Below, one piece after another: positions 36,803-39,096 of a stretch of DNA of 64,000 nucleotides (its first letter is position 1; each line of letters opens with the position of its first letter). The notes beneath the pieces are model-generated. The model saw only the letters and a program-made list of their open reading frames with translations. It had not been told where the DNA came from and ran no database searches. Origin of the DNA: Dictyostelium discoideum (Eukaryota); the NCBI GenBank assembly GCA_000004695.1, contig CM000150.2:4736001-4800000 (forward strand). Direction: 5' to 3'. The translations under genes and the position numbers were made by a program.

Positions 36803-37467
36803 CTTCTACTACAACATAAAGAACAACAATAAATTCAAAAATGAATTCATTTAATAATATTTATTAACAAAATAATCCAATTAATTCACCATTTATATTA
36901 AATGATGAAAAATTCAAATTTTAAATGATATTGAACCAATTTCAAGTGATCCATTATTATTATTACCCACTACTAATTCAGCAATTTCATCAAATAATTA
37001 TAATAATAATAATAATAATAATTTAACAAAGAAAAAGAAAAAGAAATCAATAATTTATATTAAATTATTAAATCCAATTAAAGTTATATTATCATTCTCA
37101 TTTTTTAGAGATGGATTTGTTGGTCATTCAAATTCAGATTTCGTTGGTATTTTATTAGAAGTTGTTGGTGTTTTGTTTTGGTGTTTTAGATAGAATACCA
37201 TTATGTTTAAATGCATTGATATTGGAGCATCCATTCTTATTGGAACTTTTGTTTGCAATTAGAATTAAATCACCACTTTTATTTGGTACTGATATTCTTT
37301 TGGTTGAATATAATTTCCACGAACAATCATAGGGTCACTACAATTTGGAAACAACTTTCAAGGGTAGATTCAAAAATTCAGATACCACCAAATAATTACG
37401 GTCACTTACTTTCTTTAAAAGTTCACGCATAACATCATTTGTTGATTCATTTTCCACCACCACCTCT

Positions 37468-39096
37468 TTATATTTTTTTTTTTTCAGCTCTACTTTTTTT
37501 TAATTTTATTGGGGTTTCTTTTTTATCAGACTTTTCTTTCTTTTTCGTTGCTTTGTTTACCACCACTTCTCTTGGTCTTGATTTTATTGGAACATTTTTA
37601 CCAGTTTTTTTCTTTTTCTTTTTCTTTTCCTCTTCCTCTTCTTCTTCTTCTTCCGATACGGATTCAGATTCAGATTCAGATTCAGATTCGGATTCAGATT
37701 CGGATTCGGATTCGGATTCGGATTCAGATTCGGATTCAGATTCAGATTCGGATTCAGATTCAGATTCAGATTCCTCTTCTTCTTCTCTTGGTCTTTTTTT
37801 ATTTGTTTTTTTCTTTTTCTTTTTCTTTTCTTTCTCTTCTTCCCTTGGTTTTTTTTTATTTGTTTTTTTCTTTTTCTTTTTCTTTTCTTCATTTGTTTTA
37901 TTTTTATTGAGGACATTTAGTAAACTTTTTTGTAAAATTTGTTGTTGTGCTTGTTGTTGAGCTGCTTGAATTTGTTGTTGTAATTGTTGAAGTTGTTGTA
38001 ATTGTTGAAGTTGTAAATGTTGATATGGTTGAGGAATTTGTGATAAATCGATACTATTTGTTGGGGGTAGAGTGTTATTTGTGTTGGTTGTTGTTGTTGT
38101 TGTATTATTATTATTATTATTATTACTATTATTATTATTATTATTATTAGCAATTGTTTGAGTAAGTTCTTGTATGGTTGACATCATTTTCTCTTGCATG
38201 GTTGACATCATTTTAACAAATGACTCAATATTAATTGGATTTTCTTTCGAGCCAGATGTCACCGCCACAGGGTTTGAAACTGGAACCAATCCTGATTCAG
38301 TCTCGGTTATTATATTTTGAATAATATCGGTATTATTTTTTTCTTCTGTATCTGCCATTCTTTCTCTCTCTCTCTCTTTCCCTCTCCTCATCTTTTTTTT
38401 TTGACATCTATAATTATCACATTCATCACAAAAAGTTTGAATGTGATTCCATTGGGAGTAAAAATATAATTTTTTTACATTTCTATCCATCGACCATCGT
38501 TGATAGTGTTTGGTACCATGTGCTTTTCTAAGAACAATTTCAGCATCACTATCACTTACAACACATTCTCTATTTTTTTTTGAACTTGAAAGAAAAGGTA
38601 CACCATATTCTGAATTAAAACCAATTGAAACCAAATCATTATTTTTAATAAATTTGATAAAGGAATTAACCTGAGTGTCCTTGATAAAACCATAACGAAT
38701 TAAATACTCTTCAATTTGTTTTGGTAATTCTTCTTTTTGTCTATTCCATTGTTTAATATCAACACCAATATCATCCAAGAAAGAATATGCTCTAAATACT
38801 AATTGATAATAATCATATTTAATATATTTATATGTTGGTTTAATATCTCCTGTATATTTATCTTGTACTATTTTTGTAATTTCATCTGGAGATAATTTTG
38901 ATTCATAAATTTTATTATTAATTTCACTATTATTATTATTATTATTATTATTATTATTATTATTATTATTATTATTATTATTATTATTATTATTATTATT
39001 ATTATTATTATTATTATTATTATTATTTTCACTTCTTGGTTTTTTTCTTTCTATAATAATTTCTTCATCATTGTTTTCTTCATCATAGTTTTCCAT
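37468..39096 (-). CDS. Hypothetical K/E/S-rich nuclear-type protein, about 542 aa. It has a non-repetitive N-terminal domain with a Cys/His cluster, polyN, an acidic (SE)n repeat and lysine-rich basic runs.
   Basis: ORF 37468..39210. The first credible Met is MENYDEENNDEE at 39096; upstream residues translate poly-T. Domain YKYIKYDYYQLVFRAYSFLDDIGVDIKQWNRQKEELPKQIEEYLIRYGFIKD...HGTKHYQRWSMDRNVKKLYFYSQWNHIQTFCDECDNYRCQ. The C-terminus has KKKKKKTNKK(K/R)PREEEE repeats and about 20 SE dipeptides. Confidence 0.5.
   Translation of the reverse strand: MENYDEENNDEEIIIERKKPRSENNNNNNNNNNNNNNNNNNNNNNNNNNNNNNNNNSEINNKIYESKLSPDEITKIVQDKYTGDIKPTYKYIKYDYYQLVFRAYSFLDDIGVDIKQWNRQKEELPKQIEEYLIRYGFIKDTQVNSFIKFIKNNDLVSIGFNSEYGVPFLSSSKKNRECVVSDSDAEIVLRKAHGTKHYQRWSMDRNVKKLYFYSQWNHIQTFCDECDNYRCQKKKMRRGKERERERMADTEEKNNTDIIQNIITETESGLVPVSNPVAVTSGSKENPINIESFVKMMSTMQEKMMSTIQELTQTIANNNNNNNSNNNNNNNTTTTTTNTNNTLPPTNSIDLSQIPQPYQHLQLQQLQQLQQLQQQIQAAQQQAQQQILQKSLLNVLNKNKTNEEKKKKKKKTNKKKPREEEKEKKKKKKKTNKKRPREEEEESESESESESESESESESESESESESESESESESESESVSEEEEEEEEEKKKKKKKTGKNVPIKSRPREVVVNKATKKKEKSDKKETPIKLKKSRAEKKKI
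37657..37776 (-). repeat. Imperfect hexanucleotide repeat (GATTCA/GATTCG)n of about 20 units, encoding an (SE)20 acidic repeat.
   Basis: GATTCAGATTCAGATTCGGATTCG... The coding strand reads ESESESES. Confidence 0.9.
38931..39046 (-). repeat. (ATT)n tract of about 38 units, encoding a polyN stretch of about 36 residues in the K/E/S-rich protein gene.
   Basis: Uninterrupted ATTATT run on the + strand. ORF residues N36. Confidence 0.9.

Follow-up and report, generated by a model that had tools for sequence, protein, structure and literature searches.

A one-base expansion of a coding A-tract as the probable cause of C-terminal truncation in an apparently decaying orphan gene of Dictyostelium discoideum

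The orphan gene and its A-run

A 64,000-nt stretch of the Dictyostelium discoideum genome (GenBank assembly GCA_000004695.1, contig CM000150.2, positions 4,736,001 to 4,800,000; hereafter the window, with coordinates counted from its first letter) was analyzed around a fast-evolving orphan gene on the minus strand, whose open reading frame (ORF) closes directly behind a long run of A's. The window has a GC content of 24.6% and combines poly-N and poly-Q coding tracts with very AT-rich spacers, as is typical for Dictyostelium. The ORF was found at 37468..39210, as listed in a sequence-only reading of this DNA, with the terminus ...KSRAEKKKI* and TAA at 37470-37468. ATG at 39096 is the most plausible start, giving a product of 542 aa.

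Two relatives were recovered. The word-indexed search returned P0001 alone, encoded at locus L001 on the 58-kb contig JBTAPH010000006.1 with 72% identity in the globular part, and an exhaustive HMMER search added P0122 (36% identity), encoded at locus L003 on the 47-kb contig JBTAPF010000023.1. Contig JBTAPE010000039.1 of GCA_054883475.1 (L002), an independent assembly of essentially the same genotype as the window, served as a control. The features of the gene are as follows.

37468..39096, minus: truncated ORF, 542 aa (MENYD...KSRAEKKKI), TAA at 37470-37468; the same product is called in L002 (GCA_054883475.1)
38149..38928, minus: conserved globular part (orphan family) with an H-x3-H...C-x2-C motif, 72% (aa) to P0001/L001 and 36% to P0122/L003
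37522..38148, minus: low-complexity tail with poly-N/T, a Q-rich part, three K7-T-[NG]-K...[KR]PRE modules and an (ES)n array
37483..37521, minus: first part of the C-terminal module, in frame, KETPIKLKKSRAE, aligning to KETPIKLKKIRAD of L003 in the ORF frame
37473..37484, minus: A12 homopolymer, one base more than the frame needs; L003 has AGATATACAAAAA, L002 is identical
37386..37472, minus: second part of the module, out of frame (+1), YKEVVVENESTNDVMRELLKKVSDRNYLV; L003 has YKEWVTNKDSMNDVMRELLIKVGDRNYLV
37404..37409, minus: GTAAGT hexamer, codons GTA-AGT (V-S) of the out-of-frame module, K-V-S in the window
37335..37385, minus: stretch of the +1 frame past the homology (VSEFLNLPLKVVSKL), with TAG TGA at its end

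The homopolymer had been reported as A13; the count is A12 (37473-37484). Its A's encode E-K-K-K-I, and the stop lies one codon past the tract. As had been noticed, skipping one base leads to YKEVVVENESTNDVMRELLKK with GTAAGT directly behind it; the hexamer occupies 37409-37404, in phase 0 of the shifted frame. This frame, which includes the peptide YKEVVVENESTNDVMR, stays open for 44 codons and is closed by TAG TGA at 37340-37335. It is reached with A11 or A14: the peptide AEKKKKYKE given earlier corresponds to the A14 version, and A11 yields AEKKKYKE. The supposed echo of an upstream PREVVV motif in the KEVVV of the extension did not hold, its DNA score being reached by 30 of 500 shuffles and the homologue having KEWVTNK, so that the echo is not kept.

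A/T runs of at least 12 bases are frequent in the window (161), nearly all of them non-coding. The roughly 11,900 codons of the 16 other long ORFs yielded just one sense A-run of at least 9, against runs of 9, 10, 9 and 12 in the truncated ORF; the A12 tract is therefore unusual for local coding sequence. An open alternative frame of 43-44 codons past a stop lies at the top of the local range, another gene reaching 40. The codon usage of the 44-codon extension scored -0.17 bits/codon, below 99.5% of true coding windows here; the bias of the truncated gene itself is weak (0.05-0.3).

No Pfam, PHROG, PDB sequence or Foldseek-PDB fold match was obtained for the truncated protein, and its AlphaFold model has a mean pLDDT of 60. 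A possible likeness of the H-x3-H...C-x2-C motif to the zinc finger of retroelement integrases found no support in the Pfam, PHROG, PDB and fold searches. The 5.8-billion-protein collection that was searched apparently lacks the reference Dictyostelium proteomes, as it returned no dictyostelid LTA4 hydrolase (best match 56% identity), so the small number of homologues says little about other strains. Exact look-ups of the hypothetical A11, A13 and A14 products gave no match and are uninformative, the real product being missing from the collection consulted as well. A conserved 19-mer scanned in metagenome and viral contigs had only a chance match, to a bacterial ABC-ATPase.

The three known copies differ in their 3' ends. 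The tail of the window protein is matched in part by the downstream ORF of L003 (QKSLLN[VI]LNK, (ES)n and an E-run). The L001 ORF reads through the annotated intron of P0001 to give 367 aa ending in ...MQEKIEHHKRERIKV*, with no tail. That intron (P0001 is annotated as 271 aa, L001 10001-11104) looks wrong, and the read-through product keeps the homology, including the C-x2-C and ...ENPINIES[FL]VKM... motifs. L003 is annotated with two genes here, an N-terminal ORF (P0122, frame of 10700) and a tail ORF (frame of 10702), which lie in different frames with an overlap of about 22 codons (10933-10999). They may represent a second frame break in the family or genuinely separate genes whose window counterparts are fused; in the window, the N-terminal and tail parts stand in one frame but the A-run cuts the tail. 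Crude NG86 ratios of non-synonymous to synonymous divergence (0.88 for the window against L001, about 0.6 against L003) indicate a family that is probably under weak constraint.

A conserved module on both sides of the run

L003 carries the whole C-terminal module in one frame. Its continuous frame (10933-11556) reads ...QKSLLNILNKK...ESESESES...EEEEEEEE...KETPIKLKKIRADIQKYKEWVTNKDSMNDVMRELLIKVGDRNYLVPE...FLHS*, with both halves of the module joined as ...KETPIKLKKIRADIQKYKEWVTNKDSMNDVMRELLIKVGDRNYLV... The module is short and well conserved in the family, with the pattern KETPIKLKK-RA-...-YKE-V-N--S-NDVMRELL-KV-DRNYLV. When the L003 frame was compared with the window by tblastn, the match followed the ORF frame to KETPIKLKKSRAEKKK (end 37474) and then the +1 frame with KYKEVVVENESTNDVMRELLKKVSDRNYLV (37469-37386), the switch falling at the A-run. 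The block behind the run is identical to L003 at 71 of 87 nt and 21 of 29 aa (tblastn E=2e-7 with composition correction), and the run is crossed by a single alignment at the DNA level (305 nt, 69.5% identity, E=7e-35).

The difference at the run amounts to one base. Between the anchors ...TTAGAGC and TATAAAGAG..., L003 has 13 nt (AGATATACAAAAA) and the window 14 nt (TGAAAAAAAAAAAA). After one A was removed in silico (A11), BLASTP aligned the product to L003 without gaps, with 36 of 55 residues identical (E=2e-20) and 33 of 45 (73%) in the core, twice the 36% of the N-terminal domain. By this measure of identity the C-terminal module is the best-conserved part of the protein, and on the same alignments the extension noticed earlier is the out-of-frame remainder of that module. 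The idea of a one-base indel in the homopolymer was thus right in substance, the two halves sharing a frame in L003 and the window being exactly one base longer at the run. The family homology of the window gene stops at about 37386: beyond this point, what is left of the L003 3' end showed no significant similarity, 145 of 300 shuffles reaching the score (the MAFFT alignment there included).

Altogether, we propose, with a probability of about 0.6, that the coding A-tract of this element-related, decaying orphan gene recently gained one base, which truncates the conserved C-terminal module. The narrower statement, that the frame is broken by a frameshift at the run and not by an intron, is highly probable. 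The gene would stop within the run because the run is one A too long (it has A12, and the ancestral frame calls for the equivalent of A11). Substitutions would first have made a pure A-tract of a mixed sequence (that of the homologue is GATATACAAAAA), and replication slippage would then have added one A. The extra base would bring ATA-TAA into frame, so that the ribosome would stop after the first third of the module, with the last two thirds left untranslated in the +1 frame. We infer the direction and the recency of the change, as well as its being a real mutation and not a miscall shared by the assemblies. The expansion appears fairly recent because the out-of-frame block is still 82% identical in DNA to a homologue with saturated synonymous sites.

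Such a course would mean that coding sequence drifting into a pure A-tract creates a hot spot of slippage; this genome is 75% AT, and long A-runs are otherwise almost excluded from its coding DNA. In annotation, a flag for a frameshift or a C-terminal truncation would suit the 542-aa model, not an extension by an intron. The intron of P0001 and the split-frame gene models of L003 need revision, and a 99-aa gene called downstream (see below) is unsupported.

Other accounts of the frame break

Several observations weigh against a recent expansion. The two assemblies begin to disagree near 12 bases (one of five 12-mers differs), so that a systematic miscall shared by both is possible. The out-of-frame block is very well kept (71/87 nt, no stop, 34% GC), and such preservation would also be expected if the frame were still read, since a true A11 or slippage would restore it. 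The direction of change rests on two sequences, only one homologue carrying the C-terminal module. The post-run block differs by 18% from L003, whose synonymous sites differ by 56% (pS 0.56). From these divergences, the frameshift would be either evolutionarily recent, or not real, or bypassed.

The second of these possibilities implies a true A11 and a 585-aa protein ending in ...DRNYLVVSEFLNLPLKVVSKL, with the same systematic error in both assemblies. It would account for a block far better kept than a neutral one (82% nt identity to a homologue with pS 0.56) and for the gapless alignment of the A11 version, and runs of at least 12 bases are where the assemblies begin to disagree. The comparison of the window (27435-49116) with L002 speaks for a real base. 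The two are 99.74% identical, with 2 substitutions and 11 indels, yet both have A12, and there is not a single difference over 35704-40771, the nearest lying more than 1.7 kb from the A-run. Over the shared 21.6 kb the assemblies agree in 163 of 163 runs of 6-11 bases and in 26 of 27 runs of 10-13; frequent disagreement starts only beyond about 14 bases, and runs of at least 25 agree in 7 of 14. Since A12 recurs in an independent assembly, a real mutation is favored over a sequencing error. The non-coding-like codon usage of the extension (-0.17 bits/codon) argues in the same direction, and even the A11 protein would lack the last 44 or so residues of the family, homology stopping at 37386. 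A miscall is therefore considered unlikely. The comparison also shows how reliable homopolymer lengths are in these assemblies: every one of the 11 indels separating the window from L002 falls in a homopolymer of at least 12 bases, and the window allele is the longer one in 10 of them.

In the third possibility A12 is real, and transcriptional slippage (one A lost in the mRNA) or +1 ribosomal sliding yields some protein with the full module. Twelve-A tracks stall ribosomes and shift the frame in most eukaryotes tested (PMC7295572), and poly(A) tracks have been reported in about 21% of D. discoideum genes (PMC6908487, Table 1). The length of the tract, the stop one codon past it and the intact, well-conserved out-of-frame module would suit such a bypass. 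The arrangement is not conserved, however: L003 has no homopolymer at this place and reads a single frame, and L001 lacks the region. No stable RNA structure was predicted 3' of the tract (minimum free energy -12.9 kcal/mol, z = -0.20 against shuffles), and the codon usage of the extension again does not resemble coding sequence. Slippage or frameshifting at the tract had been put forward as an option; as a programmed event it fared poorly despite the slippery A12, and we regard a productive bypass as improbable. By analogy with other poly(A) tracks, passive low-level slippage may occur at A12.

The DNA beyond the stop was examined as well.

36480..37334, strand not set: coding-like, frame-broken DNA, GC 17-31%, stops in all six frames

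As described before, the kilobase downstream of the gene (36480-37440) has no intact ORF; its GC is coding-like (26-32%), and this level continues past the stop to about 37075, with no AT-rich spacer. In 36480-37334 there was no Pfam match and no similarity to L001, L003 or the rest of the window, and coding scores were negative. A composite query of four downstream frames found no homologue among the 5.8 billion proteins.

The annotation of GCA_054883475.1 calls a spliced 99-aa plus-strand gene at window 36925-37332 (L002 11765-12172). No homologue, Pfam match or coding signal was found in any frame of this interval, and the model is probably spurious. A hydrophobic plus-strand frame was considered as the remnant of a cation-efflux gene, for which Pfam gave no support. 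If the coding-like DNA were a convergent plus-strand gene, such as the 99-aa model, the open +1 frame could be its antisense by-product, and both the call in GCA_054883475.1 and the visible hydrophobic frame would fit. The model, however, stops at 37332 and does not reach the homologous block 37386-37472; the plus-strand frames have many stops and neither Pfam match nor homologue, and minus-strand homology accounts for the block directly. A convergent gene is thus very improbable.

The GTAAGT hexamer had been read as a canonical donor that could lead to a further 3' exon. Its counterpart in L003 is GTAGGT (V-G; K-V-G) within an uninterrupted ORF. Lying inside codons that are conserved in the continuous L003 frame, GTAAGT at 37409 is, by this comparison, not a splice donor. 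The candidate intron starting there is 72 nt long and 67% AT, its TTGTAG acceptor being followed directly by TGA, and all other acceptors within 900 nt give introns of 65-76% AT and short or junk ORFs. As a local reference, the neighboring LTA4-hydrolase gene was rebuilt; its product is exactly 606 aa long, and its five introns (78-151 nt) are 80-92% AT, have T-rich acceptors and use a GTAAGT donor in four of the five cases. The LTA4-hydrolase gene is located at window 34228-35055 and 32681-35055 on the plus strand.

A splice model, in which the exon, its true length masked by an indel in the tract, runs to the 37409 donor and is joined to a 3' exon in 36480-37400, can point to this local donor consensus and to a hexamer in phase 0 of the shifted frame that occurs only 10 times on the minus strand in 64 kb, and it is extremely improbable given the conserved L003 codons, the AT content of the intron (67% vs 80-92% locally), the TGA after the acceptor, the junk behind the others, and downstream frames with no homologue, Pfam match or coding signal. 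As the family homology stops at about 37386, no further 3' exon is expected, and no credible one was seen.

Apparent decay of the locus, virus-like contigs and known systems

A displaced fragment of the family lies upstream of the gene, just beyond its promoter region.

39243..39475, minus: relic of a family member, with its final 16 codons (YKPEGIKNQQLKIGFL) plus 3' flank; matches L003 11500-11744, 77.5% over 236 nt

The match is specific, as none of 300 shuffles reached its score, and the relic was also found by tblastn. The window gene itself has no authentic 3' end past DRNYLV (37386), and a stray copy of that end stands upstream; for these two reasons together the window copy appears to be decaying. 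The arrangement suggests an insert that was rearranged or duplicated in part (partial tandem or permuted). A direct-repeat-flanked unit with circular permutation, considered as an explanation of the relic, was withdrawn when the "repeats" proved to be low-complexity A/T sequence.

Relatedness to L001 and L003 is confined to about 2.1 kb of the window (39485-37386). The window gene is a solitary chromosomal copy, and the other family members were seen only on the 47-58 kb contigs with some virus-like genes. These contigs come from D. discoideum and D. cf. discoideum assemblies, have gene content and order in common and are densely packed with small genes without Pfam matches. In the parts that were examined (L001 1-20899, L003 1-20999) a YqaJ/RecE-type recombinase (2e-25) and an AlkB-like 2OG oxygenase (4e-18) were identified, both solidly, along with matches below the Pfam threshold to the poxvirus VLTF3, the prim-pol PPL4 and a deoxynucleoside kinase (dNK). 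No capsid gene, packaging gene or ATPase was found in these approximately 21 kb of each contig. The gene content is suggestive of a virus-like or large mobile double-stranded DNA (dsDNA) element.

To our knowledge, no DNA virus has been described for dictyostelids. That the ORF is an endogenised, eroding copy from an undescribed family of virus-like dsDNA elements of about 50 kb in the D. discoideum group, and that A12 might allow low-level slippage restoring the module, is a speculative and rather doubtful proposal. If confirmed, the link of the family to mid-sized virus-like contigs in Dictyostelium isolates would be of real interest.

Further observations concern the surroundings of the gene. 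The interval of 36.4-40.4 kb, from lkhA to the next large gene, resembles a patch of gene debris. The promoter-like region of the gene (39221-38912) is 73% identical to its L001 equivalent, and directly upstream of it lies a pentanucleotide microsatellite (AAAAT/AAATA)n of about 80 nt (39290-39372, minus strand). At 39480-39740 the plus strand has a coding-like, stop-interrupted fragment (...GVKNYITLITNLRILLVKRIKNSYSFRWSSTFENIKSCEITPDGLLLHFEHLQRCGL*) for which no relative was detected. The spacer upstream of the gene contains a direct repeat of about 55 nt (aatttagtatt..ggtatcaa.catat.g.ttggatgggtgggtatgcgtcaa) in two minus-strand copies, about 40117-40175 and 39887-39946, some 230 nt apart, each of which begins a short "MDGWVCVN" ORF. 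No tRNA or Rfam family was found near the locus, including this repeat.

Homopolymer frameshifts are already a known kind of phenomenon. The gene resembles the poly-A frameshift truncations and pseudogenes of AT-rich genomes in that a one-base change of the tract leads to an immediate stop, the homologue aligns in two frames, and the repair of one base restores colinearity. It differs from them in that there is one informative homologue, about 540 upstream codons are open and the out-of-frame block is unusually preserved; the last two features would fit an event that is recent or not fully inactivating.

Transcriptional slippage has been described as rescuing frameshifted genes at long A-tracts in AT-rich bacterial endosymbionts. 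The locus shares with these a genomic A-tract frameshift followed by an intact downstream frame that slippage could restore. It is unlike them in having a eukaryotic host and a homologue that does not keep the arrangement. With the coding poly(A) tracks ("12A-1" motifs; PMC7295572, PMC6908487) it has in common twelve consecutive A's inside an ORF; here, however, the tract lies at a frame break relative to the homologue and one codon from the stop.

Giant endogenous viral elements (PMC12455990) form the last comparison. Only about 2.1 kb is related in the window, and the contigs have no capsid or packaging genes in the 21 kb examined of each, in which both differ from such elements. The likeness consists of an eroding chromosomal copy, with its frameshift, lost 3' end and displaced fragment, whose relatives reside on contigs with YqaJ and AlkB genes.

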